Shown here: positions 29,332-58,386 of the stretch, in pieces
Position numbering within the stretch: position 1 is the stretch's first letter
Layout: each line of letters starts with the position of its first letter
Assembly (NCBI GenBank): GCA_049513915.1
Contig: JBEKVN010000001.1
Span: 158,283-222,282 of the forward strand
Origin: Candidatus Aminicenantales bacterium
GTDB lineage: Bacteria; Acidobacteriota; Aminicenantia; Aminicenantales; Saccharicenantaceae
Reading direction: 5' to 3'
DNA: 64,000 bases
Made by a program: the position numbers and the translations under genes
The notes under the pieces: generated by a model
What the model saw: only the letters and a program-made list of their open reading frames with translations
Databases searched by the model: none
What the model was told of the DNA's origin: nothing

Positions 29332-30305
29332 GCTCCTTTCGCCCTGAGGCTTCGGACCCTCGATCGCCCTTTTTTAACCATGAGCGATTCGGCATAGACA
29401 TCCATAGGCACGAGTTGGAACTTCTTCGAAAGGATTTCCATGACTCTCGAGAGCGCCCTCTGCTTCTTCTCTTTTATTATGTCCATGCCGGGAAAAAAGG
29501 CAAGCCCGGGAACCTCTTCGGCGCTCAGGAAATCGAGGGGATGGAGAAGGAAGCTCAGGCCGGTCCGGGTCCACCGGCACAAATTCGCGGCGGTCCCGAG
29601 ATAATCGAGCATCAAGGCGTCGGAAAAACGGGCCATATAGAGAAGATAGCTGAAATGGATCGGGACTTTGAAAAACGGCATAGTCGTCACGGGGATTTCC
29701 AACAAACGTCCTCCGCCTGGAAGAGCCCAAGAATAGGGTTTTACCGGCAGGAGGGCCTCGCGAAAGCCGCCGAAGAGCTTTTTCCGGTCCCTCTTTTCGT
29801 CGGGGGTGAGGTCGGATTTCCAGAAGTAATAGAGACGCCCAAGCGGGCCGATCCACGTCGGGAGCGTCGAAGCGTCATAGTTGTAGTCGAGCTCCTTCAA
29901 GACGAGGATTAAGTCTTCGCTCCAGCTGAAGCCCGGTCCGCGGAAGCCGGCCGGTCTTCGTCCTGTGGCTTCTTGGATGGCTTTTTCTGCAAGAAGGATC
30001 TCTTCCCGGATCTTCTCCCGTGGGAAAAGATGGAGCCACGGCTCGTGCCGATGGGAGTGATTCCCGACGTCGTGGCCGTTTCTGGTGATCTCGGCCAGGG
30101 CTCTACGGTTCTTGTCCAGCGCGGCATCCTGACCCACGACGAAGAAGGTCATTTTCAAGTCCAGGCGGCCGCAAAAATCGAGGACCTGCGGGATTAAGAT
30201 GTCCAAATAGGAAGGGTAATCCTCCCATCCCGTATCGCCGTGGGTCTTCACGTAGGACCACTTGTTGTCGAGGTCGAGAGAAAGCGCGGCCAGGGGCTTT
30301 TTCAT
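29328..30305 (-). CDS. Polysaccharide deacetylase (CE4, NodB homology domain)
   Basis: MTFFVVGQDA and GNHSHRHE are classic NodB motifs. Start at Met-30 (ATG 30303-30305) makes an ATGA overlap with the upstream stop. Confidence 0.75.
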   Translation of the reverse strand: MKKPLAALSLDLDNKWSYVKTHGDTGWEDYPSYLDILIPQVLDFCGRLDLKMTFFVVGQDAALDKNRRALAEITRNGHDVGNHSHRHEPWLHLFPREKIREEILLAEKAIQEATGRRPAGFRGPGFSWSEDLILVLKELDYNYDASTLPTWIGPLGRLYYFWKSDLTPDEKRDRKKLFGGFREALLPVKPYSWALPGGGRLLEIPVTTMPFFKVPIHFSYLLYMARFSDALMLDYLGTAANLCRWTRTGLSFLLHPLDFLSAEEVPGLAFFPGMDIIKEKKQRALSRVMEILSKKFQLVPMDVYAESLMVKKGRSRVRSLRAKGA

Positions 30306-31969: not shown

Positions 31970-31971
31970 GA

Positions 31972-33873
31972 TCAATGCTTCTCCGGGCGCTTCTTGTCGA
32001 TGAATTCCCTGAACCAGAGCTCGAGAGCCAGAAGCCCCCAAAGGCGGCGGCCGAAGGCTTCCTCCTGGCTGATTAGCTTCTCGACCTGGGCCGGGGCGAA
32101 GAGGCCGCGGTCCTTGCAGGCCGAAGACAGGAGAATATCCTGGCAGAAACCTCTTAGCTTGTTCCTTGCCCAGAGGTGGAGCGGGACAGGGAATCCCATC
32201 TTGTCTTTTCGTCCTAGGATGACGGGCGGGAGCAGGTCCCTCAGCGCGTGTTTGAAGATGTACTTCATCTCCGCGCCCTTGAATTTCAGGGCGGGAGGCA
32301 TGGAAGTGACCAATTCCACCAGGCGGTGATCGAGAAGAGGAACCCGGGACTCGAGGGAGACGGCCATGGTGACCCGGTCTTCTACGTGGAGAAGGGCGGG
32401 CAGGCTGGCGGACAGGTCGAAATGAACCATCTTGTTGTAGTAGGACAAGGTGTTCGGATTGTTGAAGACCTGCTGGAACCTGGCGAATATTCGGTCGATG
32501 GAGAAGCTCCTGTTGAACTCGTAGCTCAGGATGCTCCGGTCGCTCCTCCCGCCCCTGTTGATCAGCCGGAAATACCGGGCGTCCATCGGCTCGAAAAGGC
32601 CGTCTTGCCAGAATTTCTGAAGCATGGGAACGTATTGCTTGACGGCCGGCAAGTTGGGCAGTATGGAGTGAAGGGAGACGATGTGCTCGCCCTCGTCGTT
32701 GGTCTCGAAGATGGCGCCCTTGAGTGCCTGTTCGAGATAAGCGATAACGTATCGCGTGTAGCCGCCGAAGATCTCGTCCCCGCCTTGGCCCCCGAGGACG
32801 ACTTTGACATGTTGGGCGGCCAGGCGAGAGACCATATATTGGGGGAAAAGCCCGGGCCCGGCCATCGGCTCGTCCATGTGATAGATCAAGCGGGGGAGGA
32901 GGGAAATGAAATCGTCCTCCGTCGGGAAGATTTCGAAGACGTCGGCTTCGCAGGCTGCGGCCACGGCCCGGGCGTAGGCGGTTTCATCGAATTCCGGGCC
33001 TTCCTTGAAGGCGCCCGTGAATGTCTTGAGCCGCTGCGGGTAAGCACGCGACGCCAGCATGGTGATCACGCTGGAATCGATCCCGCCGCTCAGATAGGCC
33101 CCTACGGGGACATCGCTTCTCAGCTGGATGCGGACCGAGTCCTCGAGCAGGCCCCTGAGCCGATCGGCGAAATCTGCTTCTGTGGTCCGGGTATCCACCG
33201 TGAAGTCCAGCTCCCAATATTTCACCGCCCTCGTGTCGTAGGTTTCGAGGTCGATGAGGAGATAGTAGGCCGGCGGGACCTTGTGAATACCTTTGAACAG
33301 AGTCTCGGAGTTGAAAACGAACTGAAGGACCAGATACTCTTGGATGGCATCCATGTCCGGTTCGGCCTTGACGGCCGGGTGCTCGAGCAGGGCCTTGATC
33401 TCCGAACCGAAGACGAGGTGCCGCTTGTCTTCGAAATAATAGAGGGGCTTGATGCCGAAATGATCCCGGGCGGCCATGACCCTCTTCCTTTCCCGATCGT
33501 AGAGCACAAATGCGAACATGCCGTTCAGGCGCCGGATGAAATCGGGGCCATCCTCGAGATAGAGATGCAGCATGACCTCGGTGTCGGATTGAGTGGAAAA
33601 GACGTGGCCGGCCTGCTTCAGGGACTCCCGCAATTCGATGTAGTTGTAGATCTCCCCGTTGAAGACGATGGTCAGGGGCCCAAAGCTCATCGGCTGCTTC
33701 CCCGATACGAGGTCGATGATGGAGAGCCGCTTGTGGTAGAGCCCGGCGCCCCCCTCGATCCAATGGCCCTCTTCGTCGGGACCGCGGTGGCTGATTTTTT
33801 CCGCCATCCGCGCGAGCAGGCGGAAATCGACAGGCGCTCGGTCTTTGTTGAAGATGCCCACGAAACCGCACAT
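31972..33873 (-). CDS. Asparagine synthase-family glutamine amidotransferase (EpsI/WbpS-like, probable uronate amidation)
   Basis: N-terminal nucleophile MCGFVGIF and PP-loop SGGIDSS in the synthetase domain. 633 aa. Confidence 0.85.
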   Translation of the reverse strand: MCGFVGIFNKDRAPVDFRLLARMAEKISHRGPDEEGHWIEGGAGLYHKRLSIIDLVSGKQPMSFGPLTIVFNGEIYNYIELRESLKQAGHVFSTQSDTEVMLHLYLEDGPDFIRRLNGMFAFVLYDRERKRVMAARDHFGIKPLYYFEDKRHLVFGSEIKALLEHPAVKAEPDMDAIQEYLVLQFVFNSETLFKGIHKVPPAYYLLIDLETYDTRAVKYWELDFTVDTRTTEADFADRLRGLLEDSVRIQLRSDVPVGAYLSGGIDSSVITMLASRAYPQRLKTFTGAFKEGPEFDETAYARAVAAACEADVFEIFPTEDDFISLLPRLIYHMDEPMAGPGLFPQYMVSRLAAQHVKVVLGGQGGDEIFGGYTRYVIAYLEQALKGAIFETNDEGEHIVSLHSILPNLPAVKQYVPMLQKFWQDGLFEPMDARYFRLINRGGRSDRSILSYEFNRSFSIDRIFARFQQVFNNPNTLSYYNKMVHFDLSASLPALLHVEDRVTMAVSLESRVPLLDHRLVELVTSMPPALKFKGAEMKYIFKHALRDLLPPVILGRKDKMGFPVPLHLWARNKLRGFCQDILLSSACKDRGLFAPAQVEKLISQEEAFGRRLWGLLALELWFREFIDKKRPEKH

Positions 33874-33886
33874 GCTTAAAGACCTC

Positions 33887-35005
33887 TCATTGGGTCAGCC
33901 CGGCCAGGATTTTGACGATCCGCTCGGATGTCTTGCCGTCCCCGAAATAGGGGGGAGGTTCCGGGAGGTCCGCGCGGTCCAATTTTGCAAAGGCCCGGAC
34001 GATGGCTTCGGTCTTTGCGCCCGCGACGATGTTCCAGCCGCTCTCCACCGTTTCCGTCCATTCAGTTTCGTCTCGCAGGGTGACGCAGGGGACACGGGCG
34101 AAATAGGCTTCCCGCTGAACACCCCCCGAGTCCGTCAATATGGCTTTGGCCTGAGACTCCAGGGCGACCATGTCCAGGTAGTTGATAGGAGGGATCAGCC
34201 GGACATGTCGATTCATGGGCATAGGGAGCTTATTGTCGAGCAGCGATTTGCGTGTCCGGGGATGAAGGGGCACGATAATCGGGCAGCGCTCGTTCGCCAG
34301 CTCCGAAAAGGAGGAGAAAATGGAATGTAATCGGACAGGATCATCGGCATTCTCCTGCCTGTGGACCGTGGCCAAACAATAAGAATGGCGCTTGAGATCG
34401 AGGGTCCGAAGGACTTCGGATGTCTTCAACGCGACTTTCTTGTGGAGCAGGAACGCATCCAACATGACGTCCCCGACCCGGTGGACGCCCCGGACGATGC
34501 CCTCCGTCTTCAGATTCAGGATGGACGCTTCCGTCGGGCAGAAGAGCAGGCTCGAGATCCGGTCCGTGAGTATCCGGTTGATTTCCTCGGGCATGCGGCG
34601 ATTATGGCTCCTCAAGCCGGCCTCGACGTGAGCGATCGGGATGTTCATTTTCACCGCGGCCAGCGCCCCGGCAAGAGTCGAATTCGTATCCCCATAGACG
34701 AGGGCCAGGTCCGGGCGTTCCTCTATCAAGACACCCTCGATGCGGGCCAGCATTTTGGCCGTCTGCTCGCCGTGTCGACCCGACCGTACGCCAAGATGAT
34801 ATTGGGGGGTGGGGATATCGAGCTGGTCGAAAAAAACCTGGCTCATTTCGGAGTCGTAATGCTGCCCCGTGTGGACCAGGACCTCATCCAGCCGCGGGGC
34901 CTGCTTTCGACGGTTGTAGGCCTTGATCGCCTTGTTCACAACGGCCGCCTTTACGAATTGCGGGCGTGTGCCCACGATCGTCACGAGCCGAACAGTCTTT
35001 TTCAT
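33887..35005 (-). CDS. wecB: UDP-N-acetylglucosamine 2-epimerase, non-hydrolysing (copy 2)
   Basis: VTIVGTRPQFVKAAVV...HTGQHYD...DSGGVQREA. A clear paralog of the 18062-19198 gene. Confidence 0.85.
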   Translation of the reverse strand: MKKTVRLVTIVGTRPQFVKAAVVNKAIKAYNRRKQAPRLDEVLVHTGQHYDSEMSQVFFDQLDIPTPQYHLGVRSGRHGEQTAKMLARIEGVLIEERPDLALVYGDTNSTLAGALAAVKMNIPIAHVEAGLRSHNRRMPEEINRILTDRISSLLFCPTEASILNLKTEGIVRGVHRVGDVMLDAFLLHKKVALKTSEVLRTLDLKRHSYCLATVHRQENADDPVRLHSIFSSFSELANERCPIIVPLHPRTRKSLLDNKLPMPMNRHVRLIPPINYLDMVALESQAKAILTDSGGVQREAYFARVPCVTLRDETEWTETVESGWNIVAGAKTEAIVRAFAKLDRADLPEPPPYFGDGKTSERIVKILAGLTQ

Positions 35006-35260
35006 TTGGTATCAATCACGACCATCATCAGCCGTCAAGTCGGCCGGATCCCAGCCGTGCTGCCGGATACCATTCTTGTTGTTTTAGGCAAAAATATCAA
35101 TACTCGTGACGGATTAGCTAGGGGGTGATAATTACGTGCCGAAGATCACCTCAAAGGGTGAGGCCGGGCGTCTCCATTTGCCCGGTTGACTATAAGGCGA
35201 GCGATCTTTCTTGATGTAAATGCCTCAATAGATATAATAGGGCCAGCGAACACGCCAACA

Positions 35261-36787
35261 ATGGCAAAAATCAGAGGGCTTTTGCGTTCCTTCGACAAAA
35301 ACTCACGGGCGGCCCTTTTCCCGATTCTTATCCATCTTTCCATCACTATTCCGCTGGCTGCGGCGCTCAACATATGGATCGATGAAGCCCATACGATGAA
35401 CACCATCAGCGGCTCCTTGTCTCATACGCTCGACAGGGCGATGAGTTTCGAGATGCAGCCTCCCTTGTACTTCATTTTCATGAACCTCTGGGCAAGATTG
35501 GGATCCTCGGTTCTTTTCCTGAGATTATTCTCCGTCCTCTGCATGATCTCGGCCATCTGGCTGGCCTCGCGGATATCGAAGAGCATGTTTCCCGAGCTCC
35601 ATCCCGGTTGGCTGCCTCTGGCCGTCGCGATCAATCCCTACGCTATATGGGCCGCGACGGAAATGCGGTTATATGCTTTCCTTGTCCTCTTGACTTCGGC
35701 CCTCCTCTTGACGTTCTACCAGGGATTCCTGTCGGACGACCCGGCAGCGAAGGGAAAAAGGAAATGGTTTTTCGTTTTTTGCGTGCTGTCCCTCTATACC
35801 CAGTATTACGCGGCATTCCTGCTCACAGCCATGTTCTTAGGGCTCGTTCTATTGAAGAGATGGGGGCCGCTGAAAAAGCTCGCTGGATATTATGTTTTGG
35901 TAGTCGCCAGCGTTCTTCCGATTCTCTTGGCCGCGGTGCGGCAGACGGCGCAGCACCGGAAGTTCATGATTGCCGATAACGGTGTCCTAAACTATTTATC
36001 CGTGGGAACTCGCTTCCTGCGCTATCTTTTGAGGCTGGAATGGATGCCCTCGCCGATCTACATGTTTATTTACACTGCCTGCCTGGCCGGCTTCCTGGGT
36101 TTTATCATGAAGCATCGTAAGAATCTCAGAGACGTACATAAAATGATTGGGGTCATGATCCTCATCGTCACAGTTTTTTACCTAGCATCCATGCCTTTTG
36201 TAAATAACGAACTGGTCAATACCAGACATACCACCGTACTGTTCATTCCCGCGCTCCTGCTACTGGTTGCCGCCCTGAGTCTCCTGCCTGCGGACCGAAG
36301 AAGGAAAAGTGCCATCGGTGCGCTCTTGGTAATGGCGTTGGCAAATGCAATCTACATGGTCGGGGAATACTCGCCAATGGCAAAATTCGGGGATTCTCGG
36401 AGAGTCGCCGAATACATCGCCAACAATGAAGTGTCCGGACAGCCCATATTGGTTTTCATATCAGAGTTGGCCCTGCCCTTCGCTTATTATTATTCGGGCA
36501 AAAATATCGTCATTCCGATACCGGATAAAGCTCCGACAACCTACTATGATGTGAACGACTTTGCCCTGAAAAGCGAACAGGATATCACTCGGGCTGTCGA
36601 TAGGGAGGGATTGCGGCCGGAGTATGTCTGGGTCGTCACTTGGGGATTATGCGAGTACCTTGGGGTGGACTATCACTGCGAAATATTGGAGAAATATATC
36701 CAGAATTCCTTCACCGTCGAAGACGATAAGAGCTTTTACCATTCAAGGGTACGCCTGCTACGCCTAAAGAACATAAGCGGACCATAA
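35261..36787 (+). CDS. GT-C-fold membrane glycosyltransferase (ArnT/PMT family-like)
   Basis: Short cytoplasmic N-terminus, TM1, then NIWIDEAHT (the DE motif in the first periplasmic loop typical of ArnT/PMT). More than 10 TM helices plus a C-terminal soluble domain. ATG 35261 is preferred over the TTG at 35186. Confidence 0.55.
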   Translation: MAKIRGLLRSFDKNSRAALFPILIHLSITIPLAAALNIWIDEAHTMNTISGSLSHTLDRAMSFEMQPPLYFIFMNLWARLGSSVLFLRLFSVLCMISAIWLASRISKSMFPELHPGWLPLAVAINPYAIWAATEMRLYAFLVLLTSALLLTFYQGFLSDDPAAKGKRKWFFVFCVLSLYTQYYAAFLLTAMFLGLVLLKRWGPLKKLAGYYVLVVASVLPILLAAVRQTAQHRKFMIADNGVLNYLSVGTRFLRYLLRLEWMPSPIYMFIYTACLAGFLGFIMKHRKNLRDVHKMIGVMILIVTVFYLASMPFVNNELVNTRHTTVLFIPALLLLVAALSLLPADRRRKSAIGALLVMALANAIYMVGEYSPMAKFGDSRRVAEYIANNEVSGQPILVFISELALPFAYYYSGKNIVIPIPDKAPTTYYDVNDFALKSEQDITRAVDREGLRPEYVWVVTWGLCEYLGVDYHCEILEKYIQNSFTVEDDKSFYHSRVRLLRLKNISGP

Positions 36788-38023
36788 TCAACTCACCAAG
36801 TTCAGTCTAAAAACAGCGTACTTCATCAAGGACTTGATATCACCGCCCCACTGCGTTTCCGCGCGGATGACCCAGTTTTTATCCGCTTGAAATGAATGTG
36901 TCGAAAAGTCGAACGACTTGATCTCGACATACTTCTCATCGATACAATACCCCCCCGTGCGGGCGCATTGATCCAGGGATTGGCGAGTCGGCGATTTCGG
37001 GGCCTCCGAATCATGAACGGAAACGTGCGAGTTCGGATAGAGCACGTACCTGGCCATGTGGAAATCGAGGGCGACGGGATCCGTGGATGCGGCGATGGCC
37101 TTGGTATGGGCGACCGGCAAATTGGTCCTATCGATAAGACCACAAAACTCCGCTGTGGTGATATTGAGGTAAGGCCTTCGGACAGTTTTTAGGAAATATC
37201 CAACCTCGGCGCCGAGCATCCCCGGAACAGGCCCTTTCTTCGACCAATTGAACGCGAACGAATGGAAATTGTGATAATGATCGACCAATTTGCCGCCGCC
37301 GATGGGACTTGATCCCCCGCTCAGATCACTGACTCCAAGGTAATTCTTGACGGAGCTGGTCATGCCGCAAAACTGGCTGTGATGGTTGAGCGCCGCGCAG
37401 TTGATGAATTTAACCGGCTGAGGAGTATATGAGTCCTTCTCCCAAGCGCCCCACCGATAATCGATGATTGTCCCCTTGTCCGTTCGGATGATGGGATAAC
37501 TCATGATGACTTCACGCTTGTTTAGCCCAGGCAGGCCGTTGTCCATGGCCAGAAGCGGGATACCGCCCGATCCGTCGCATAGCACATACCCCGGCCCGTC
37601 AGGGGGGGAGTAGACCCTTTTCCCGCCGCTCCCGACGTCGATAAGGTGACACACGGAAAACCGGTCTCCAAAGGCTTTCTTGAGGCGGTCGGCCAGGCCG
37701 TTGTAGCTCTTAATGCCGGGCAGATCCGAATTTCGATCGAAATCGGTGTGCCAGCCACCCGTTTCCCAAGGCCTGGAGCCCCTATGGACATTCTCCGCGA
37801 TTACGACTTCGCCCTTGAATCCGCCCCTCTTCTCCATGATCAGAGTGATCAGCGCTTCGACGGCGGCGATGTTGGGCGCGCCCTGGTTGAACCACTGAAG
37901 ATTCGGCTTGATGATGACGATGTCGTCATCGCCGAAGAGCCTTTCCGCGCCGCCCATCATCGCCAGGACTTTCTCCATGTTCTCGGAGGGGGATCCATTG
38001 ACGGCACGAAAGACCTTAGCCAT
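36788..38023 (-). CDS. DUF362-domain protein
   Basis: DDIVIIKPNL near the N-terminus and overall length match the DUF362 family. Function unknown. Confidence 0.5.
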   Translation of the reverse strand: MAKVFRAVNGSPSENMEKVLAMMGGAERLFGDDDIVIIKPNLQWFNQGAPNIAAVEALITLIMEKRGGFKGEVVIAENVHRGSRPWETGGWHTDFDRNSDLPGIKSYNGLADRLKKAFGDRFSVCHLIDVGSGGKRVYSPPDGPGYVLCDGSGGIPLLAMDNGLPGLNKREVIMSYPIIRTDKGTIIDYRWGAWEKDSYTPQPVKFINCAALNHHSQFCGMTSSVKNYLGVSDLSGGSSPIGGGKLVDHYHNFHSFAFNWSKKGPVPGMLGAEVGYFLKTVRRPYLNITTAEFCGLIDRTNLPVAHTKAIAASTDPVALDFHMARYVLYPNSHVSVHDSEAPKSPTRQSLDQCARTGGYCIDEKYVEIKSFDFSTHSFQADKNWVIRAETQWGGDIKSLMKYAVFRLNLVS

Positions 38024-38103: not shown

Positions 38104-39099
38104 TCAGGTTACGATCTCCGGCACCGCGCCAGCCAAAATCGGAGGCAAGTGAAGGTACAACGTCGTGGAGCGCTTCCTTTCGATGTCCCGGTAGATGCTG
38201 CGAACTTGTTGCGGCGAAAGGCCGGTGTGTCCGCTGACCGTTTCGGCGTCGATGCCGTGGTTTTTTCCATAGAGGCAGAGGTCCATGATCTCGTAAGGAA
38301 CGGTGAAGTAGAATTCGTCCTGCCCCTGAGGCAGGGAATAGGTGTCCGTCGTCGGCGGTCGGCGGAGGACGGCCTCCGGCAAGCCCAAATGGCGCGCCAG
38401 CTGGTAGACCTGTGTCTTGTACAGGTGGGCGATGGGCTTGATGTCCGCGGCGCCGTCGCCGAGCTTGACGAAGAATCCCTGGTCGTATTCCAGCCGGTTA
38501 GGGGTGCCCGCGACGGCATAGTTGTGCTTATCGGCGTGGTAGTATTCCAGCATCTTCCTGATTCTTTGCTTGAAATTGGTGGCGGCCACGATGGCTAGAT
38601 AGGAATTCAAATCAAGCCGCTTTTTTATCTCCCTTCCATCCGGCGAAACGGCGACTATCGAGAACAGCGTGTAGGGCTTGTCCTCTCCGATGCCCGGCAA
38701 GACGAGCTTCGACTTCCATCCGGCGCCATATTTGGGAATGACCGACCGGACAGCTTCGTCATACTTGGTATAGAAGCCGGCGGCATCGAGGAGTGAGGAG
38801 ATGTCCCAGTGGACCTTTCGTATTCCTAGATGATCTGCAACCACCGAGCTCAGCGCCATTGTCTCGTCTGCAGAATGGCGTTCGGGCATCTGGAGGCCGA
38901 TGACCTTGTCTTTCCCGATGGCGCGAGCACACAAGGCCGCCGTGACACTGCTGTCGATCCCCCCGGAAATGCCGAGGATCAGGCCCCTCCGGCGGAGCCT
39001 CTTGGCCAAGGCCTCTCTTATCGAGAGAGCGATCCTCGCCACTTCGCGATCGCCATCGATCGTGAGAACCTCCCGGGAAAAATGAACGCCTGCCATCAT
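38104..39099 (-). CDS. NAD+ synthetase-like PP-loop ATP pyrophosphatase (NadE family, paralog 1)
   Basis: GLILGISGGIDSSVTAALCARAIG is the PP-loop SGGxDS motif. Size and C-terminal region are typical of NH3-dependent NadE. Confidence 0.7.
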   Translation of the reverse strand: MMAGVHFSREVLTIDGDREVARIALSIREALAKRLRRRGLILGISGGIDSSVTAALCARAIGKDKVIGLQMPERHSADETMALSSVVADHLGIRKVHWDISSLLDAAGFYTKYDEAVRSVIPKYGAGWKSKLVLPGIGEDKPYTLFSIVAVSPDGREIKKRLDLNSYLAIVAATNFKQRIRKMLEYYHADKHNYAVAGTPNRLEYDQGFFVKLGDGAADIKPIAHLYKTQVYQLARHLGLPEAVLRRPPTTDTYSLPQGQDEFYFTVPYEIMDLCLYGKNHGIDAETVSGHTGLSPQQVRSIYRDIERKRSTTLYLHLPPILAGAVPEIVT

Positions 39100-39173
39100 G
39101 TTAGCCTCGGGGCGCCTAGAGATCTTCTTCTGTCCTCAGTGTCAAAGAGCCAGTCCGTAAGGCGCATATCCTG

Positions 39174-39419
39174 TCAGGACACCTTTTTTTCCAGAAAGGC
39201 GCGGATGCTCGCGATCGAATCCAGGTTTTCGGGGACGAGCTCGTCGTCGTTCACTTTGATGTGATAATGCTGCTCGAGATGTGAGATAAGCTCAAGGACG
39301 CCCATGGAGTCGATGATTCCGGCGTCGACCAGCGATTCCTCGGCGCCCAGCGGCCTGTCGTCCCCGAAGAAGAATTTATCGGCCAGGAACCGACGGAGTT
39401 CTGCTTCAATGTCGGCCAT
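39174..39419 (-). CDS. Acyl carrier protein (ACP 1)
   Basis: 81 aa, acidic, phosphopantetheine site GIIDSMGVLEL. Confidence 0.8.
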   Translation of the reverse strand: MADIEAELRRFLADKFFFGDDRPLGAEESLVDAGIIDSMGVLELISHLEQHYHIKVNDDELVPENLDSIASIRAFLEKKVS

Positions 39420-39490
39420 GGCGATCGTCCTTTTCGTGAGGAGGGCATACCCCGATCTCCGCGGTGAAGATGCGGTCCGCCTCCCGAGTA

Positions 39491-39949
39491 TTATAACAAA
39501 TCATCGGGGATTTCCCTGCGACCGGCTTTCTTATCGGTATCGATCAGCTCGATATTCAAACCAGGCCGGGCGTAAAGAAAGGCGATTTTCTCGTTCTCGA
39601 AGGCCTCTCCGGGCTGTGGCTCCGCGATTACGCGCATTCCTTTCTTCCTCAACCGCTCGATTCCGGCGGCGAGGTTCGTGCATCTGAAGCAGATATGGTG
39701 GAGACCGCCTCCCTTGAGAGCGAATTGATAAATTGGAGATCGCTTATCGGAGGGCTCGATGAGCTTGACCAGGCAGGAATCCTTCTTGGCCAGGAAGATG
39801 ACGTTGACCTTCTGGCGGGTGTTGGCGACTTTTTCGGTTATCGGGACGTAGCCGAATAACGATGTCCATTGCTCAATGCCTTCGTCGAGCCGCTTGACGA
39901 CGAAACCTATGTGATCGATGACCATCGGTTCATTTCCATGGTGGATCAT
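39491..39949 (-). CDS. VOC-family (glyoxalase/methylmalonyl-CoA epimerase-like) protein
   Basis: VIDHIGFVV is the VOC beta-alpha-beta-beta-beta N-terminal module. 152 aa. Confidence 0.55.
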   Translation of the reverse strand: MIHHGNEPMVIDHIGFVVKRLDEGIEQWTSLFGYVPITEKVANTRQKVNVIFLAKKDSCLVKLIEPSDKRSPIYQFALKGGGLHHICFRCTNLAAGIERLRKKGMRVIAEPQPGEAFENEKIAFLYARPGLNIELIDTDKKAGRREIPDDLL

Positions 39950-40839
39950 TGCCGGTACTGGGTCCGCAAGGTGATTCCGAAATGGAGACGGATGAAGTCC
40001 AGAAAGTCCCTGTGCAGAGGATCGCGACTGAAGTCGGTATAAAAGTGCTCCAAGTCGTAGGAGATCTTCTTGTTGCCCTTCATGACCAATTCTATCGTGT
40101 TCGTATCGGGAAGGGAACAGAAGGCGCGGTCGTCCGGCAGCGTGTAACGACCGGAGTCCTTCTCGTGCTGGAATGGTATCGATCGGGCATCCAGGAACGA
40201 AGAAATGATTTTATCATGATAATAGGTTACGCTTTTTTTCGATATCCTTTGCAGCCGGACCAGGTCGTGGGTCGTGTATTGGTCCGGATCCTGCTGGATA
40301 ATGCTGTTCGGCCTGACGTGGCCTTGGACGACGACTCCCGGATTAATGATGCAGTTGCGCTCGATATGGGCGCCGGGCATGATGGTGACGGCCATGGCAA
40401 TCCAGACGAAATCATCGATGACGACGGGCGCGAATTTGGCGGGATACCCCATGGTCACAGGCAGGAAGGACCCGTGGGTGTACACGGTGCATCGAGGACC
40501 CAATCCAGAGTAAAAGCCCAAGGAGACGTCCTCGGCGCAGTGAATGATGCAATGGATGCCGAAAAACGAATTGTCCTTGCAGCTGAAGGAGGCCTTTCCC
40601 TTGATCTGAGTTCCATAGCTGATGATGGCATTGGCGCCCATGGACAGCTTGTGGACGTTGATGTACACCAGCCTCCTGATACTGATGTCGTTGCCGAGTG
40701 AGATCTCATCGGCATGCACGTACGTCATGATCGGAATGCGGACGTTTCTGCCGATTCGGTAACCGCAGAGCCGATAGAGGAACCTCGTCGGTGAAGAGGG
40801 GAGAAACACACATAGGACGGCGACGAGTTTCTTGAACAT
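39946..40839 (-). CDS. Hexapeptide-repeat (left-handed beta-helix) acyl/acetyltransferase with C-terminal extension
   Basis: Repeating [LIV]-G-x-x-x-x hexads (IGRNVRIPIMTYVHADEISLGNDISI...) in the N-terminal half. Confidence 0.55.
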   Translation of the reverse strand: MFKKLVAVLCVFLPSSPTRFLYRLCGYRIGRNVRIPIMTYVHADEISLGNDISIRRLVYINVHKLSMGANAIISYGTQIKGKASFSCKDNSFFGIHCIIHCAEDVSLGFYSGLGPRCTVYTHGSFLPVTMGYPAKFAPVVIDDFVWIAMAVTIMPGAHIERNCIINPGVVVQGHVRPNSIIQQDPDQYTTHDLVRLQRISKKSVTYYHDKIISSFLDARSIPFQHEKDSGRYTLPDDRAFCSLPDTNTIELVMKGNKKISYDLEHFYTDFSRDPLHRDFLDFIRLHFGITLRTQYRQ

Positions 40840-40841
40840 TT

Positions 40842-42425
40842 TTAACTTTCCTTCCCCCTATTATACATATTCTGAAAAAACCGGATACTGCCCGTTCTGT
40901 CCGGCTTTCCGATGTCGTTTTTGGGGATGGAGGCGACAATCAGCAAGGTCTGCGGAATCTTATAGTTAGGCAGCTTTTCGCGGCAATAATCGAGCATGCC
41001 GGCCGCCGCACCTGGAGTGTTCCGCATGGGGACGACCAGTCCCGCCAACCGATGACCTGCGAGCGGATCCGGGATCCCGAAAACGATGCATTCCACGACG
41101 CGGCCGGATTCCATGATGACATCCTCTATTTCCTGGGGATTGATTCGGTGCCCCCCGACTTTGAGCTGGTCGTCCTTCCGGCCCGTTACGTAGAGAAACC
41201 CGTCTTCGTCGAAATAACCAAGGTCGCCCGTGTGATATCCATGCTTATCCAGGACTTTTTTTGTCGACTCTTCATCCCGGAAATAGCCGATCATGATATT
41301 TTCCCCTTGCGCGACCAGCTCGCCCGTATCGCCGGGTTTTAAGACCTTGCCCGAATCGGAAAGGATCTTGATGGTCACCCCCGATATGGGCTTCCCGATG
41401 GAATCGATTTTCTTTAACAGGAATTCCGGCGCAAGATAGGCGAGGCGCGCTGCGGCCTCCGTGGCCCCGTACATGATGTAAAGTCTGGTATGGGGCGGGA
41501 GGACCCTCAACAGCTCGAGTTTGACGTATTTCGGCATATGTCCGCCCGCTTGCGAACAATAGCGGAGAGCGGGCAGCTTGTCGCGAAAGCAGGCCAGCGG
41601 CGACTTGAACAGCAGGTGGGCATACGTCGAGGGGACTCCGGAGAAACCGGTCACGCCCTCCGCGGCCATTTTTTTCAATACCGATGCCGTATAAGCGAAT
41701 TTGTTGTGAATAACGACCCTGCCTCCGACGGCGATGTGGGTATTGAGCAACGATTTGCCCATGACGTAGAAAAAGGGGAGTACGACCATCTGGACGTCAT
41801 GGGACGTGAGCTTCAGAAATTCGACGATGGAGCGTGTGTTTGCGATAATATTGGCATGCGTGAGCATGACACCCTTGGGCCTGCCCGCCGACCCTGAAGT
41901 GTAGACGATCATGGCGCATGTCCGAGGGTCGATGTCAAGGTCGGGATTGTTGTCTGATTGGGATGATAAGAGTGCAGGCAATAAGGCGCCGCCGCCAGGG
42001 TCGGATGATTCCGTCCGGCGGGCGTTGGCGACATAAATGTGGCGGATGTCGAGCCGCGACAAGTGGAGGGATGTGAGAATCGGCTCGAATCTTGACGAGA
42101 TGATCAGGACTTTTGGTCTCAGCTCTTCGAGCAATCCCTTTATCGTTTCGGGCTTCAGCCCGGTATTGAGGGCGACGGAAATGCCGCCCGCCTTCAGGAT
42201 GCCGTAGTAGCAAAAGATGTAGTCGGGGCTGTTTTCGGATATCAGGACGACCCGGTCGCCGGGTTGGACGCCGGCTTCGATAAGCCCATGGGCCAGCTGA
42301 TTGGCAAGACGGTTCATGTCCGCGTAGGACCGCCGCTCGTCATCGAATACGACGGCGACGGAATCGGGGAAGGATTCAGCGCTCCGTTCGAGAAAGTGAT
42401 GGATGAGCGTCTGCCCGGTCCTCAT
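40842..42425 (-). CDS. AMP-dependent synthetase/ligase (acyl-CoA or acyl-ACP ligase, copy 1)
   Basis: AMP-binding motif IVYTSGSAGRPKGVMLTH and the downstream YGATE and GDLG blocks. Confidence 0.8.
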   Translation of the reverse strand: MRTGQTLIHHFLERSAESFPDSVAVVFDDERRSYADMNRLANQLAHGLIEAGVQPGDRVVLISENSPDYIFCYYGILKAGGISVALNTGLKPETIKGLLEELRPKVLIISSRFEPILTSLHLSRLDIRHIYVANARRTESSDPGGGALLPALLSSQSDNNPDLDIDPRTCAMIVYTSGSAGRPKGVMLTHANIIANTRSIVEFLKLTSHDVQMVVLPFFYVMGKSLLNTHIAVGGRVVIHNKFAYTASVLKKMAAEGVTGFSGVPSTYAHLLFKSPLACFRDKLPALRYCSQAGGHMPKYVKLELLRVLPPHTRLYIMYGATEAAARLAYLAPEFLLKKIDSIGKPISGVTIKILSDSGKVLKPGDTGELVAQGENIMIGYFRDEESTKKVLDKHGYHTGDLGYFDEDGFLYVTGRKDDQLKVGGHRINPQEIEDVIMESGRVVECIVFGIPDPLAGHRLAGLVVPMRNTPGAAAGMLDYCREKLPNYKIPQTLLIVASIPKNDIGKPDRTGSIRFFQNMYNRGKES

Positions 42426-42442
42426 GTCCGCACTCCCACTCC

Positions 42443-43477
42443 TTATCCGACGAGCCTATAAAACAGCCTGCCAATGATGCGCAGAATGCTCGTCGGAGTC
42501 CTCGCGACGAGGAATCTCGATAATCCCCCGCGGCCGCGGTGCTCCGCAAGGTAAGCCTTCTCGCCGAGGTCGTAACGGAAATATTCCAGCACAGTTTCTT
42601 TCGCGCCCCATGCCCTTTTGTACCGCAAAAGGCCGCGGTTATCGATCTCGGTCCTGCCAAGGCTCATCGTCGCAAAATTTCGGTCATTGTACCAATTCAG
42701 GGCTTCCCACATGAGAAGATTGTTTGGTCTTAGACACTGGTGCTCCATCTCCGAAGCCCCGTACTTGAATAGGGCCTCGTTTCCGAAATGAAAAAAGATG
42801 GACGCCGCGATGACTTTGCCCGCGTGATAGGCGGAAAAAACCTGGCCGAGATCCCGGGAAAGGACATGTTCGAGGACGTTCTTGAAGAAGATGAAGGGCT
42901 GGGGTGGGAGGGCGTGCCTTTTTCTGGTCATGCAATTCAAGCGATAGAAGGATCTCAGAGATTCGGCCGAGCGGTCGGTCCGTACGGACACGCCCTCGCG
43001 GAGGGCTTTTTTGATGTTCCTTCGATTGTTGGAGCTTAGACTCTTAAAAAGGTCCGCCTTGGTCTTTCGGAGGCCGATTTCATGCATGAGATAAGTTTTC
43101 CATGCTGGTGCGCCCTCCGGGCCATACGGATCGTCCCGCCACTCGATGGATCGCCACCCGTTTTTTTCTCCGTAATCGATGGCGCTCTTCACCGCGGCCT
43201 TCAGCGACTCCGGCTCGAGGACATGAGGGGCGCATCGGTCCGTGAATGGGAGGGCCACCCCTCGTTTCCCTTTCAGGGGGCCATACACCTCCATCATGGG
43301 CATCAAAAGAGCGAGCCGTCCACTCTCCGAGGAAACGAAATAGAGGGGCTTGAATCGGTAGGTCGCTTGAAGGACCTTCGCCCAAGCCGATGTATGGAAA
43401 AACGAGTGGTCGTTGTTCTGCAACAAGACCTCGTCCCAATCGGGAGACTCGGCCGGGTTGAGAATCCGGAATTCCAT
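42443..43477 (-). CDS. FemAB-family / BioF2-like GNAT-fold transferase (paralog 3)
   Basis: MEFRILNPAESPDWDEVL...FFHTSAWAKVL is the typical N-terminus of the Acetyltransf_6/FemAB-like family. The C-terminal LLRYKRAWGAKE block is also typical. Confidence 0.55.
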   Translation of the reverse strand: MEFRILNPAESPDWDEVLLQNNDHSFFHTSAWAKVLQATYRFKPLYFVSSESGRLALLMPMMEVYGPLKGKRGVALPFTDRCAPHVLEPESLKAAVKSAIDYGEKNGWRSIEWRDDPYGPEGAPAWKTYLMHEIGLRKTKADLFKSLSSNNRRNIKKALREGVSVRTDRSAESLRSFYRLNCMTRKRHALPPQPFIFFKNVLEHVLSRDLGQVFSAYHAGKVIAASIFFHFGNEALFKYGASEMEHQCLRPNNLLMWEALNWYNDRNFATMSLGRTEIDNRGLLRYKRAWGAKETVLEYFRYDLGEKAYLAEHRGRGGLSRFLVARTPTSILRIIGRLFYRLVG

Positions 43478-43562
43478 CGATATTTCCTAATGATTCGTGT
43501 TTTTCGGTTCAAAGTCAAGGCCGGAAGCGGGGGGATTGGCTCAACGAGATCGCCGCGCCTTT

Positions 43563-44525
43563 CTACTGTAATATCGGCGGCGCCTGATTCAGGTGTCTGG
43601 TTGCATTGTATTTTGTGCCAAAATCCCTGAACGCCCTCCGGACCTGTTCCTCGGTTAGCGCCATGACACGACAGACCTCAGATATGTCGACCTTGTTCTC
43701 CCAGGCATAGAGCAGCAGATCGAGCTGGTTGAAGGGCATGCGGAAATACCATTCTTCATCAGTGACCGGCGCGCTGTAAGTATCCGGAGATGGGGCGCGT
43801 TCGAGTATTTTTTTGATAACTCCCAGATTTTCGGCCAATTGGAACACCTGATTTTTAAATAGATGGGCGATCGGCTCGATATCCACTCCTCCGTCACCGT
43901 ACTTGACGAACAACCCCTGCAGGGCTTCGCTCTTGTTGGTCGTCCCGCAGACCAGGAAGTTGCTTTTCTCTGCGAAATAATATTGGGTCATCATCCGAAC
44001 CCTGTGTTTGGTAGAGGTGGCCGCGATAATGCCGCGCGCCTGCGCATTGTTCAGGCGAGCACTTTTAGCAGCACCTGCGGGATCGATCACGGTCAACGTG
44101 AAGAAGTTTAAGTTGCCTCTATTGAGGATATCCGAAGGGAGCGTGATCTTCAGCCTATGCCCTTCGCTGAATTCAGGAAAGACCGATTTGGCGACCGCGT
44201 CTCTTTTCTCATACGTCCCGAAGGCCTCCAAAACCGGGGTGATATCGAATAGGATTGTTTTTATACCAAGCCGCTTCCCATAAAGCGAGGCGAACTCAGC
44301 GCTTTGCGGGCTCGATTCCTTGTCGGGAAGCAGCAAGCCCAGAACCTTTTCTTTGCCGATTGCCCTTGCCGATAACGCCGCACACAAAGCCGAATCTACT
44401 CCCCCGCTGAGGCCGATGACAAGGCCTTCTCGATGCATGGAGAGCAACTGATCCTTGATGAAAGCACAGATTCTATCGGCCTCAGATTCGCAGTCGATCT
44501 TGAGGACATCTTTGGTGAAATCCAT
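43563..44525 (-). CDS. NAD+ synthetase-like PP-loop ATP pyrophosphatase (NadE family, paralog 2)
   Basis: GLVIGLSGGVDSALCAALSARAIG PP-loop. A paralog of 38104-39099. Confidence 0.7.
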   Translation of the reverse strand: MDFTKDVLKIDCESEADRICAFIKDQLLSMHREGLVIGLSGGVDSALCAALSARAIGKEKVLGLLLPDKESSPQSAEFASLYGKRLGIKTILFDITPVLEAFGTYEKRDAVAKSVFPEFSEGHRLKITLPSDILNRGNLNFFTLTVIDPAGAAKSARLNNAQARGIIAATSTKHRVRMMTQYYFAEKSNFLVCGTTNKSEALQGLFVKYGDGGVDIEPIAHLFKNQVFQLAENLGVIKKILERAPSPDTYSAPVTDEEWYFRMPFNQLDLLLYAWENKVDISEVCRVMALTEEQVRRAFRDFGTKYNATRHLNQAPPILQ

Positions 44526-44668: not shown

Positions 44669-45718
44669 TCAGGCAGCTTTCTTCGAATAGTGTTTTAAGC
44701 CGAGACGCATGGCGCATTCATTCCGTAAAGACCAATACGTTTTGTGAAGATCAACGGCTTTCGCATGCCGTAACCGGTTGACATATCTAAGAGCGAATAA
44801 CGATCCGTAGAACTTTTCTCGACCATACTTCGAACCAGCCTGCAAAAAATAAACGAAAAGCCTGAATATCAAGAACCTCACCAGCCGTTCACGCGCAGGG
44901 GAACATGATTCATTGTGCTTACAAACTATGTAGGTTCTGTTCAGCATCTGCATCATCCCCATCTCTTTTCCGTCGACCCTTCTCGATGGGAAGGTGTAAT
45001 GGAAAACCCTGGCATTTTTGGCGCACACGATCAAGTGCTTTTTCAAAATGCCCAGCGACGCGTCGATATCCTCGCTCAAAGCGTATTCCCCAAGGGATTC
45101 ATCGAAGCCCATGCTCCTGATCAGGTCCGTCCGGAAGGACATCCTAAAGCCGGCCATGGGGCCTTGAACAATCGCATTCTCACCGGGCAACCAAAGCGGA
45201 GCCGTTAGAATGTCTTCAAAATAATAAAGAGGATCCGGGAAATACCTTGACAACAGAGGGTAGACAAATTGATGATATTGACGCTTTAACCCGTCCGTCA
45301 AAGTGATGTTGTAAAGCTTACGGCTAATCGATCCCAAAGGCGGATGCGCCGACTCCGCGGCGCAAACACCTCCGATCTTGTCATCGATGTCCTTCTCATA
45401 AACCCTCATGACGGAGGCGGCCGTATCGGGAAACCAGAGTGAATCGTCATCCGGGAATATCACAACCGGCGAGTTCACATGCTTCAGCCCGACATTGCGT
45501 TGATGCGCTGTCCCGGGTTCCGCGTGCAACAACACGAAGTTTATGGATTTGTCCGACACGCATAGCTTTCCGACTATCCTTTTAACGGTGTCGTGATCAT
45601 CGCTGGAATCCACGATGATGAAATTCGCGGGAGGCCTGCTTTGTGAAATCATGAGGGGCACAGAAACCGGAAGGATGACAGGCCTATTCCTCGTGACCAG
45701 GACGATGTCATATTCCAT
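44669..45718 (-). CDS. Glycosyltransferase family 2
   Basis: YDIVLVTRNRPVIL and IIVDSSDD motifs. Locally AT-rich gene. Confidence 0.7.
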   Translation of the reverse strand: MEYDIVLVTRNRPVILPVSVPLMISQSRPPANFIIVDSSDDHDTVKRIVGKLCVSDKSINFVLLHAEPGTAHQRNVGLKHVNSPVVIFPDDDSLWFPDTAASVMRVYEKDIDDKIGGVCAAESAHPPLGSISRKLYNITLTDGLKRQYHQFVYPLLSRYFPDPLYYFEDILTAPLWLPGENAIVQGPMAGFRMSFRTDLIRSMGFDESLGEYALSEDIDASLGILKKHLIVCAKNARVFHYTFPSRRVDGKEMGMMQMLNRTYIVCKHNESCSPARERLVRFLIFRLFVYFLQAGSKYGREKFYGSLFALRYVNRLRHAKAVDLHKTYWSLRNECAMRLGLKHYSKKAA

Positions 45719-46013: not shown

Positions 46014-46973
46014 TTGATTATCGAGAGCTTTCGCGGCGATTTCGAACAGGCCGCTTCTTTGATCCAGCGCGCGTGGGCGGATAACGAAAAACAGCCGTTG
46101 CTCTACACGGCCGAATTCCTGGGCTCCTTGTTCGAGTATCCGGGCGCAGACCTTTCTCTCGCGCCGACCCTGTATGACGGGACGAAGCCGATAGCCTTCA
46201 CCGCGGGTTTTCCGCGCCGCTTGCGTTTCAAGGGCCGGGAATTGCGAATCGTCATCGGCTCATTCCTGAGCGTATCGAGCGAATTCAAAAAAAGGGGATA
46301 TGGCATTGTCCTTTGGAGTGAGCTCGTAAGGAGGGTGCAGGCCGCGGGCTTCGACGGCATGATGAACTACTGCGTCGAGGGAGAGCCGATGAACGGCATG
46401 ATCCTCGGTTGTTGCCGTCGGCTGAAGATGCCGGTCGAGCGCGTCTTTTCCATCCATTACCTTACCTGCTTACTTTGGCCGAAAGAACCCAACGCCGTGA
46501 AGAGAGAGCAGGGGGAGGGGGTCGTGGATACCTTTCTGGAATTGGCCGCTCCGATCGCGGACCGTGCGTCTCTATCTCGTATCTGGAGCAGGCCGGAAGC
46601 TGAGTGGCAGTGCTCTGGACGGCTTGGGGCCATCGTCGCCAGACGAGTCGTCGAGCGAAGCCAGGGGATCCTAACCGGCTACATCATGCAGGTCGCCGAC
46701 CCGAAGCGTACGAAGTGCCTTCTTATCGAGGACATCCTCTGGGGTAATTCGCAGCCGGAGGAACGATCGGAATTGGTCCTCCGGCTTAAGAACGAGGCCG
46801 CCGCGGCGGGGGCCAGGCTGGCCGTCGTCCCCGTCCTGGGTTATGGAGATATGGCCCCGTTCCTCTCAGCGGGTTTCCGTCCTTCACCTCGGATCGTGCA
46901 GGCGTATCTATCCGCCTGGTCTGGTCCGACAGACACGGGGACCCTTGACGCAATGTACCTGGACGTGTTTTGA
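46014..46973 (+). CDS. GNAT-family N-acyltransferase
   Basis: Acetyl-CoA-binding-like block FKKRGYGIVLWSELV. TTG start in track, so the 5' end is uncertain. Confidence 0.45.
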   Translation: MIIESFRGDFEQAASLIQRAWADNEKQPLLYTAEFLGSLFEYPGADLSLAPTLYDGTKPIAFTAGFPRRLRFKGRELRIVIGSFLSVSSEFKKRGYGIVLWSELVRRVQAAGFDGMMNYCVEGEPMNGMILGCCRRLKMPVERVFSIHYLTCLLWPKEPNAVKREQGEGVVDTFLELAAPIADRASLSRIWSRPEAEWQCSGRLGAIVARRVVERSQGILTGYIMQVADPKRTKCLLIEDILWGNSQPEERSELVLRLKNEAAAAGARLAVVPVLGYGDMAPFLSAGFRPSPRIVQAYLSAWSGPTDTGTLDAMYLDVF

Positions 46974-46995
46974 TGCGCAAGGTGGGCGACACAGC

Positions 46996-58375: not shown

Positions 58376-58386
58376 CGGATTCGTTC

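Follow-up and report, generated by a model that had tools for sequence, protein, structure and literature searches.

The 64-kb window analyzed here, a stretch of 64,000 nucleotides from contig JBEKVN010000001.1 of a Candidatus Aminicenantales bacterium, carries two genes for PP-loop enzymes related to the NAD+ synthetase NadE within an exopolysaccharide (EPS) locus. They are referred to as NadE-1 and NadE-2.

38104-39099 (-): NadE-1, NadE-like PP-loop enzyme, 331 residues; NF002048 subfamily, clade 1
43563-44525 (-): NadE-2, NadE-like PP-loop enzyme, 320 residues; NF002048 subfamily, clade 2

Both belong to a co-directional block of nine genes that encodes, in order, a GT2 glycosyltransferase, NadE-2, a FemAB-like protein, an ANL-family ligase, a hexapeptide acyltransferase, a VOC/glyoxalase protein, an acyl carrier protein (ACP), NadE-1 and a DUF362 protein, with intergenic gaps of -4 to 143 nt. 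Judged by sequence, NadE-1 and NadE-2 are members of a distinct NadE-derived PP-loop subfamily in which the pocket for nicotinate and nicotinic acid adenine dinucleotide (NaAD) is rebuilt. Because their genes almost always lie next to, and occasionally are fused with, those of a carrier protein and an acid-activating ligase, the members of this subfamily most likely act on a side chain of a polysaccharide and not in NAD synthesis.

The translations, read directly, contain the SGGxDS PP-loop that the initial annotation of these genes had reported, as ISGGIDSS at residues 44 to 51 of NadE-1 and as LSGGVDSA in NadE-2. Full-length comparison of the two proteins gives 41% identity, and Pfam NAD_synthase (PF02540) is matched by each of them, with E values of 1.1e-52 (NadE-1) and 6.1e-54 (NadE-2). 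They had also been described as NadE-like in length; they are indeed NadE-type PP-loop proteins but exceed the 250 to 285 residues of canonical single-domain NadE by about 50 to 60 residues, because of an internal insertion that splits the Pfam match into two stretches. NF002048 (PRK00876), an NCBIfam model of the type "subfamily" named "NAD(+) synthase", scores 488.2 bits for NadE-1 and 389.8 bits for NadE-2 against a cutoff of 313, and residues 5 to 324 of NadE-1 align to profile positions 5 to 324 of 330. The equivalog models of orthodox NadE are all failed by both proteins, namely, NF010587 (173 and 198 bits; cutoff, 255), NF001979 (105 and 113 bits; cutoff, 250), NF010588 (87 and 85 bits; cutoff, 479) and NF002730 (about 20 bits; cutoff, 473). 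The initial annotation had left it to a comparison with bona fide NadE whether the two proteins fall among orthodox enzymes, and the hidden Markov model (HMM) scores place them outside; this placement rests on score separation and signature residues rather than on a tree, with the Escherichia coli and Bacillus subtilis enzymes as orthodox references. Identity to solved NadE is 19 to 28%. The best PDB sequence match of the subfamily is Pyrococcus horikoshii NadE (2e18; 1e-29), and a PDB sequence search found no solved structure within NF002048. Neither protein has a glutaminase domain (Ntn type, with Cys2), and the Asn_synthase (AsnB-type) model matches NadE-1 only, at 16.4 bits against a cutoff of 21.

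Residues that contact ATP, Mg and NaAD were taken from Table S4 of De Ingeniis et al. 2012 (PMC3376133), which covers 11 NAD synthetase structures representing every structural branch, and were located in a MAFFT alignment of B. subtilis and E. coli NadE with 61 sequences of the NadE-1 clade and 61 of the NadE-2 clade. Numbering follows B. subtilis NadE, the reference sequence of which is 100% identical to 1ee1_A. Residues S46, G48, D50, S51, R139, T157, E162, D173, K186 and P207 are invariant in all 61 + 61 orthologs, and neither clade varies in the ligands of ATP, pyrophosphate and Mg or in the catalytic Asp173, with the sole exception of the Thr208 position, which is Cys or Ser in clade 2. 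Since the complete ATP-pyrophosphatase machinery is kept, both enzymes would still adenylate a carboxylate (or carbonyl), and they are probably ATP-dependent carboxylate-adenylating enzymes of the amidating kind.

The contacts to NaAD are another matter. Thr169 and Lys258 are present in 11 of 11 structures, and Ala209 and Leu211 in 10 of 11 (Table S4, PMC3376133), but a check of these residues, suggested with the initial annotation, finds none of the four retained. Thr169 is replaced by Val and Leu211 by Thr in every sequence of both clades (61/61 and 61/61); Lys258 is likewise Leu in 61/61 and 61/61, an assignment that depends on the MAFFT alignment of TxHK to TxYL/TxHL; and Ala209 becomes Thr in 60/61 sequences of the NadE-1 clade and Pro in 61/61 of the NadE-2 clade. 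The corresponding residues of NadE-1 in the window are V211, T251, T253 and L316. Among the 422 full-length members of the family collected in all searches, the Thr169 position is Val in 389 and Thr in 0. Clade 2 presents additional changes at Asn133 (Cys/Ser), Phe167 (Leu) and Thr208 (Ser/Cys). The motifs GxFVKxGDG, PxxDTYS and TxY/HL form a family signature common to these two clades and to a third one described below. An apparent FTK motif in four NadE-2 orthologs was a false alarm, as it sits at position 119 and FVK is still found at the true site. A change of substrate has a precedent in the NadE family, as the nicotinamide mononucleotide (NMN) synthetase of Francisella tularensis (3FIU) has switched from NaAD to nicotinic acid mononucleotide (NaMN) (PMC3376133). 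That enzyme still uses a nicotinate nucleotide, however, and keeps both FTK and PSAGLW despite its NaMN specificity, so the loss of these motifs from NadE-1 and NadE-2 argues against any nicotinate substrate.

The substitutions in clade 2 also bear on the idea of a sulfur-transfer enzyme of the LarE, MnmA or TtuA type, which would turn an adenylated carboxylate into a thiocarboxylate. Cys occupies the Thr208 position in 54/61 and the Asn133 position in 44/61 sequences of this clade, and there are weak N-terminal matches to LarE and MnmA models. These matches are confined to the PP-loop and lie far below cutoff (29.6 and 23.7 bits versus 150 for the LarE model TIGR00268; at most 25 bits versus 236 to 364 for the MnmA models), NadE-2 of the window has Ser at both positions (S171, S246 for Asn133 and Thr208), clade 1 has Asn and Thr, and no sulfur-relay genes occur near NadE-1 or NadE-2. 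Such a function is hardly credible.

An AlphaFold2 model of NadE-1 built with 122 homologs (mean predicted local distance difference test [pLDDT] score, 88.1; predicted template modeling [pTM] score, 0.88) has the NadE fold. The top 50 Foldseek matches of this model are all NAD or NMN synthetases with a probability of 1.0, the best ones having TM scores on the target of 0.82 to 0.87 at 17 to 26% identity; Francisella 3FIU is among these best structural matches. The insertion of about 50 residues is predicted to be a three-strand beta element (residues 119 to 161 of NadE-1, with strands at 129 to 133, 147 to 151 and 157 to 161) that precedes the long helix carrying N175, R179 and R181, the modeled equivalents of Asn133, Arg137 and Arg139. 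In the predicted fold, it would adjoin the substrate site and dimer region.

The remaining genes of the nine-gene block and the main genes around it are as follows.

44669-45718 (-): GT2 glycosyltransferase, first gene of the block (Pfam Glycos_transf_2)
42443-43477 (-): FemAB-family/Acetyltransf_6 protein of the PEP-CTERM-associated type (TIGR03019, 109.9 bits versus cutoff 260; Pfam FemAB, Acetyltransf_6)
40842-42425 (-): ANL-family adenylating ligase, acyl-CoA/ACP ligase type (AMP-binding + AMP-binding_C)
39946-40839 (-): hexapeptide-repeat (left-handed beta-helix) acyltransferase, candidate acyl-ACP:sugar transferase (Pfam Hexapep; weak WcaF/WbbJ-type matches)
39491-39949 (-): VOC/glyoxalase-fold protein, methylmalonyl-CoA-epimerase-like (Glyoxalase_4, 2.6e-21; TIGR03081, 67.7 bits versus cutoff 115)
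39174-39419 (-): stand-alone carrier protein of the ACP/peptidyl carrier protein (PCP) type, 81 residues, IDSMG motif with Ser38 (Pfam PP-binding, 1.6e-07)
36788-38023 (-): DUF362 protein, last gene of the block (Pfam DUF362, 1.4e-07)
33887-35005 (-): WecB UDP-GlcNAc 2-epimerase (TIGR00236, 323 bits)
31972-33873 (-): AsnB-type glutamine-dependent amidotransferase (TIGR01536, 521 bits)
30302-32041 (-): nucleotide-sugar (UDP-ManNAc-type) dehydrogenase, uronic-acid-forming step (TIGR03026, 272 bits)
57871-59277 (+): exosortase, EpsH family (Pfam Exosortase_EpsH, 1.3e-44)

The 81-residue carrier is encoded directly upstream of NadE-1, and its nearest NCBIfam models are those of ligase-loaded carriers (OlsHI ACP, AmcB, AsbD and DltC), all below cutoff. 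The ANL ligase reaches 338 bits on TIGR03098, the model of an exosortase-associated ligase (cutoff, 592). Its A4 region reads PFFYVMG and lacks the Asp that would bind an alpha-amino group, which makes an alpha-amino acid substrate unlikely; among stand-alone enzymes of solved structure, it is closest to fatty-acyl, feruloyl, oxalyl, o-succinylbenzoyl and malonyl-CoA ligases. Downstream of the block follow WecB, the AsnB-type enzyme, the UDP-ManNAc-type dehydrogenase, a deacetylase and a GT2 protein. The AsnB-type protein is complete, with an MCG N terminus and an SGGIDS PP-loop, and scores 481 bits on TIGR03108 (XrtA/PEP-CTERM amidotransferase; cutoff, 817). The whole EPS locus spans about 12.7 to 59.3 kb of the window, and the exosortase gene at its end marks the region as an exosortase/PEP-CTERM-type EPS locus. 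No NAD-salvage genes are found among the annotated genes of the 64-kb window. The initial annotation was right to place the two genes with ACP, ligase and FemAB genes instead of NAD-salvage genes, and right to note an AsnB-family amidotransferase and uronic-acid genes in the same locus. A promoter-like site upstream of the GT2 gene, at 45878-45850 (-), is weak evidence, and a scan of 36.5 to 46.2 kb gave 12 terminator-like sites versus 11.1 in shuffled sequence, which is merely compatible with one transcription unit. For the DUF362 protein, no relative of solved structure was found.

Relatives of NadE-1 were sought in one genome per GTDB species, giving at least 591, of which the best 80 are 57 to 78% identical to it. 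Neighborhoods were counted by tblastn and all-against-all clustering in 45 species-level loci with 5 kb or more of sequence on each side of the NadE-1 ortholog. The following genes lie no farther than 5 kb from that ortholog, the first three being counted on the same strand.

ANL ligase: 37/45 loci
Carrier protein: 33/45 loci
AsnB-type amidotransferase (~660 residues): 30/45 loci
At least one of ligase, carrier and AsnB: 40/45 loci
UDP-sugar dehydrogenase: 6/45 loci
Hexapeptide transferase: 6/45 loci
FemAB: 4/45 loci
DUF362: 4/45 loci

The linkage of NadE-like genes to a ligase/carrier pair and an AsnB-type enzyme in exosortase EPS loci looks obligate. Orthologs of NadE-1 found beside ligase, ACP and AsnB genes are 57 to 88% identical to it and occur in Aminicenantes, Desulfobacterota, Geobacterales, Fibrobacterota, Verrucomicrobiota, Planctomycetota, Actinomycetota, Nitrospirota, Elusimicrobia, Chloroflexota and others (about 10 phyla). 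The gene order varies by lineage (AsnB>NadE>ACP>ligase; ligase>NadE>ACP; ACP>AsnB>ligase>NadE), and this permutation points to selection for linkage rather than to the shared ancestry of a single operon. Sporadic occurrence, together with 57 to 65% identity between phyla, fits transfer with EPS loci and not a vertically inherited housekeeping gene. In Desulfobacterota, the surroundings are the XrtA/PEP-CTERM core (Wzz/GNVR, ParA-like kinase, Poly_export, BBP2_2 porin, Bac_transf, DUF3473 deacetylase and exosortase), and exosortase genes occur near family members also in loci L002 and L092 and in 11 genome loci. Three metagenomic NadE-1 orthologs preserve the ligase-(hexapeptide-VOC)-ACP-NadE synteny, with an orthologous NadE-2 adjoining in two of them; the hexapeptide acyltransferase gene is syntenic in L004, L095 and L106, and the VOC/glyoxalase gene in L004, L093, L095 and L106. 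The DUF362 gene adjoins NadE-1 orthologs in L002, L008, L093 and L127 and is seen elsewhere in these loci too.

Two ways of coupling the neighboring genes were considered and rejected. An obligate NadE-1/NadE-2 heterodimer does not agree with the presence of NadE-2 within 5 kb of only 4/80 NadE-1 orthologs, nor with the finding of either clade alone with ligase and ACP. The AsnB-like neighbor is not a mere glutaminase subunit, as its Cys2 is intact and it has a synthetase PP-loop (SGGIDS) of its own.

Orthologs of NadE-2 (66 to 83% identity) were found in Acidobacteriota, Desulfobacterota, Atribacterota and one metagenome-assembled genome (MAG) labeled Nanoarchaeota, and in the loci examined they always lie in polysaccharide loci. 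Among the 38 loci of at least 4 kb that were counted, another family paralog plus a ligase accompanies NadE-2 in 19, NadE-2 directly follows an ACP>ligase pair in 6, and a UDP-sugar dehydrogenase gene lies directly downstream in 5. The other paralog is either NadE-1 or NadE-3, a third clade of 321 residues that is about 45% identical to both paralogs of the window. NadE-3 is always directly followed by a ligase gene and usually lies a few kilobases from a NadE-2 ortholog (for example, L086:9913-10878, L090:12835-13800, L091:10325-11290 and about 15 further loci); locus L127 has all three clades. The ortholog in the Nanoarchaeota-labeled MAG (L088, GCA_043818675.1) is 74% identical to NadE-2 and sits in a Wzx/Wzy-type glycan locus, reflecting either inter-domain transfer or a binning error. 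There are two NadE-like genes in one EPS operon here and up to three per locus elsewhere.

The presence of WecB, the UDP-ManNAc-type dehydrogenase and the AsnB-type enzyme near the block raises another interpretation, in which the NadE-like enzymes are uronamide synthases that amidate C6 of a uronic acid in a nucleotide sugar or polymer (e.g., UDP-ManNAcA) independently of ACP and ligase. UDP-sugar dehydrogenase genes directly follow NadE-2 orthologs in L090/L112, L092, L101 and L104 and occur near family members in L004, L010 and L087, and the retained Arg137 (with Asn133 in NadE-1), which binds the pyrophosphate of NaAD, could hold the diphosphate of a nucleotide sugar. The known uronamide formers, the AsnB-type WbpS and, in Campylobacter jejuni, an ATP-grasp enzyme, are members of other families, and the window already encodes an AsnB-type protein. 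A dehydrogenase is near NadE-1 orthologs in 6/45 loci versus 37/45 for the ligase, and the linkage to ligase and ACP would be left unexplained, as would the fusions of NadE-like domains to ligase, phosphopantetheinyl transferase (PPTase) and PCP described below. Uronamide synthesis is rather unlikely overall, and its remaining support concerns NadE-2, owing to the adjacent dehydrogenase genes. The examples offered in the initial annotation, uronamide formation and activation for aminoacyl transfer by FemAB-like enzymes, are not the ones best supported by the counts, a FemAB gene being present in 4/45 loci.

Fusions were searched among 1.84 billion representatives at 50% identity, which gave 381 clusters at E <= 1e-30, and those found among the matches listed join the NadE-like domain to the same partners. 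P0244 (849 residues) consists of AMP-binding, AMP-binding_C and NadE-like domains with a clean linker, and P0339 is a partial ligase-NadE protein with this architecture cut by a contig end. P0241 combines a NadE-like domain with an AcpS-type PPTase. In P0246, a NadE-like domain is followed by AMP-binding_C (A_sub), in which the A10 Lys is replaced by Asn, and by a PCP. A further candidate, P0242, was discarded, as its C-terminal extension is Arg/Pro-rich, of low complexity and probably due to frameshift read-through.

The NadE-like domain of P0246 stands where the N-terminal domain of an ANL enzyme would, which suggests that it might load the carrier in its place. The chemistry on the carrier could accordingly be of a kind without ammonia, with the NadE-like domain loading the phosphopantetheine thiol or ligating a carrier-bound amine and so building a linker that the exosortase might use as its acceptor. 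PP-loop enzymes that use nucleophiles other than ammonia include TilS, argininosuccinate synthetase and beta-lactam synthetase. The locus of P0246 (L149:7207-13594) encodes a normal ligase-PCP protein, the NadE-A_sub-PCP protein, a GDSL lipase, two alpha/beta hydrolases and an Sfp-type PPTase, and a separate carrier or ligase tends to go with each of the NadE paralogs, L127 being an example. The P0246 architecture is, however, a singleton among 5.8 billion clustered sequences, possibly a local rearrangement, and serves as a lead only; a carrier-loading ANL ligase is nearly always present (37/45), and such chemistry is without known precedent in the NadE family. It is an unlikely alternative to amide formation from ammonia.

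Other parts of the EPS locus also contain genes of the side-chain type. On the opposite strand, a second carrier-protein-style set (46843-51523 [+]) begins with an FkbH-domain protein of the glyceryl-loading type (46843-48744), continues with a DltA-like amino-acid adenylating enzyme (49004-50686 [+]; TIGR01733, 311 bits versus cutoff 317) and closes with a small hexapeptide transferase (51044-51523 [+]); no open reading frame (ORF) for an ACP was identified for this set. A second FemAB-like protein, a second WecB, a B12-binding radical SAM protein and an Acyl_transf_3-GDSL fusion are further products of the locus and suggest an unusually heavily decorated polymer.

13962-14954 (-), 18062-19198 (-), 21436-22935 (+) and 23020-25302 (+): coordinates of these further EPS-locus genes

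Large ORFs of 858, 533, 361 and 399 residues without a Pfam or NCBIfam match lie at 51707-54283 (+), 35186-36787 (+) and 15853-18059 (-). The flanks encode an S-methyl_trans+MTHFR fusion, a Peptidase_M55 protein and a GFO/IDH/MocA oxidoreductase (59931-61754 [-], 62699-63625 [+]). Peptidase_M55 and GFO/IDH/MocA genes also flank NadE-2 orthologs on related contigs (L086 and L090 to L092), so that the boundary of the locus looks conserved in the lineage.

The reading we favor, with a probability of roughly 0.6, is that the NadE-like enzymes of NF002048 are not NAD makers and amidate a carrier-borne carboxylate in an EPS side-chain pathway. In this pathway, the ANL ligase would attach a carboxylic acid without an amino group (plausibly one with two or more carboxylates) to the 81-residue carrier as a thioester, and the NadE-like enzyme would adenylate a remaining free carboxylate of the carrier-borne unit and convert it into an amide. 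We infer both the amide product and the ACP-borne acyl substrate. Free ammonia would be the simplest nitrogen source, because no glutaminase domain or subunit is attached. The AsnB-type enzyme may perform a second, glutamine-dependent amidation in the same pathway, and a hexapeptide and/or FemAB-type acyltransferase would deliver the completed acyl group to one of the polymer's amino sugars. NadE-1, NadE-2 and NadE-3 may be substrate-specialized versions of one enzyme. A bolder extension, which we regard as doubtful, holds that the NadE-derived domain recognizes a phosphopantetheine-tethered substrate, or loads the carrier, and that an amide-bearing EPS linker is the long-sought acceptor onto which the exosortase transfers PEP-CTERM proteins; such a linker might parallel the cross-bridge that FemAB enzymes build for sortase A.

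Several observations weigh against amidation of a carrier-borne unit. The window operon has two NadE-like genes for one ACP and one ligase, and ligase, carrier and AsnB are all missing within 5 kb in 5/45 NadE-1 loci. The nearest solved relatives of the ANL ligase belong to several substrate classes, and the proposed action on an ACP-bound acyl unit draws on adjacency and fusion. In the literature searched, nothing was found on the NF002048 subfamily, on NadE homologs in polysaccharide loci or on carrier-linked NadE, including in PMC3376133, PMC7196632 and PMC1569441. Other observations would favor genuine NH3-dependent NAD+ synthetases, either housekeeping copies or an extra NAD+ supply for the dehydrogenases of the locus. 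Besides the Pfam NAD_synthase match, both proteins pass TIGR00552, a permissive equivalog-domain model named "nadE" (162 and 171 bits versus 63.65), and the public NCBI annotation of NadE-1 and NadE-2 (100% matches P0001 and P0121) is "NAD(+) synthase". The catalytic core is intact, and part of the NaAD contacts is kept (R137, Y144, D177 and an aromatic residue at 257, plus N133 and F167 in NadE-1), R137, N133 and D177 being listed also in the dimer-interface and salt-bridge rows of Table S4 (PMC3376133). In a search limited to the window, no NadE homolog is visible besides these two, tblastn with B. subtilis and E. coli NadE matching NadE-1 and NadE-2 only (24 to 28% identity).

Against NAD+ synthesis stand the universal loss of Thr169, Lys258, Leu211 and Ala209, the insertion at the substrate and dimer region, the two to three paralogs per locus, the linkage to ligase and ACP across phyla with its fusions, the absence of NAD-pathway genes nearby and the failed equivalog cutoffs. 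From this sequence evidence, NadE-1 and NadE-2 are very unlikely to be NAD+ synthetases. The proposal of the initial annotation that they are repurposed adenylating enzymes and not housekeeping NadE is supported by lost contacts, subfamily placement, synteny and fusions, with amidation itself as the inferred part. A 2012 census (Table S3, PMC3376133) lists an extra single-domain NAD synthetase in Geobacter bemidjiensis beside a glutaminase-linked housekeeping one, as well as extra single-domain enzymes in Pelobacter propionicus and Anaeromyxobacter; the G. bemidjiensis entry would agree with a repurposed extra copy, but these entries are not mapped to NF002048 and serve as a lead only.

Compared with known systems, NadE-1 and NadE-2 share with NadE (EC 6.3.1.5; B. 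subtilis 1NSY/1KQP, E. coli 1WXI, P. horikoshii 2E18) the fold, the SGGxDS loop and the ATP, Mg and Asp173 residues, and with the NH3-dependent enzymes the single-domain architecture without glutaminase. They differ from NadE by an identity of only 19 to 28%, the beta insertion, the replaced nicotinate/NaAD contacts, and a family that is multi-copy, located in EPS loci and linked or fused to ligase and ACP. AsnB-family amidotransferases (TIGR03108), among them WbpS (uronamide) and OxyD (malonamyl starter units), serve secondary pathways by adenylating a carboxylate with ATP and amidating it, the role that we propose for NadE-1 and NadE-2, although they form another PP-loop family, with a fused Ntn glutaminase that the two proteins lack. 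WbuX, WbpG and PseA (TIGR03573) are likewise PP-loop ATPases of glycan loci; they introduce nitrogen through adenylation, which creates an amidine at an N-acetyl group, and work together with HisH/HisF-like subunits. In contrast, TIGR03573, the N-acetyl-sugar amidotransferase model, is absent from the NCBIfam matches of NadE-1 and NadE-2 at E <= 0.01, and no HisH/HisF-like genes were seen among the annotated genes of the window. The pairing of a stand-alone carrier with an adenylating enzyme recalls the DltA/DltC, AsbC/AsbD and AmcH/AmcB modules, to the carriers of which the window ACP is nearest, even though ACP and ligase fall below every equivalog cutoff. In modules of this kind, which include RfbKLMNO (tetronate) of Vibrio cholerae O1 and BtrI/J/K/H of butirosin biosynthesis, the adenylating enzyme charges the carrier with an acyl unit, which is modified there before its transfer to an amine. 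We know of no NadE-family enzyme in any of these modules.

The recruitment of PP-loop adenylating amidotransferases to glycan pathways is known from other families. What appears to be undescribed is the recruitment of the NadE family to such a pathway, its link to a carrier protein and the size of the misannotated group; the initial annotation had called such a role under-described for the NadE family. Thousands of database proteins are automatically named "NAD(+) synthase" through this model, each query having at least 8000 word-sharing matches. If they make no NAD, the wrong gene is taken for a step of NAD synthesis, or spurious duplicates are counted, when metabolism is reconstructed for Aminicenantes, Desulfobacterota, Geobacterales, Verrucomicrobiota, Planctomycetota and others. 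To our knowledge, the chemistry of the accessory enzymes in exosortase/PEP-CTERM EPS loci has never been worked out. The ANL ligase, the carrier protein, the NadE-like enzyme and the AsnB-like enzyme form a conserved four-part module in these loci that is small and soluble, and they offer a handle on the side chain of the polymer and possibly on the attachment target of the exosortase. If the favored reading is true, these proteins would be the first members of the NadE family with a non-pyridine substrate.

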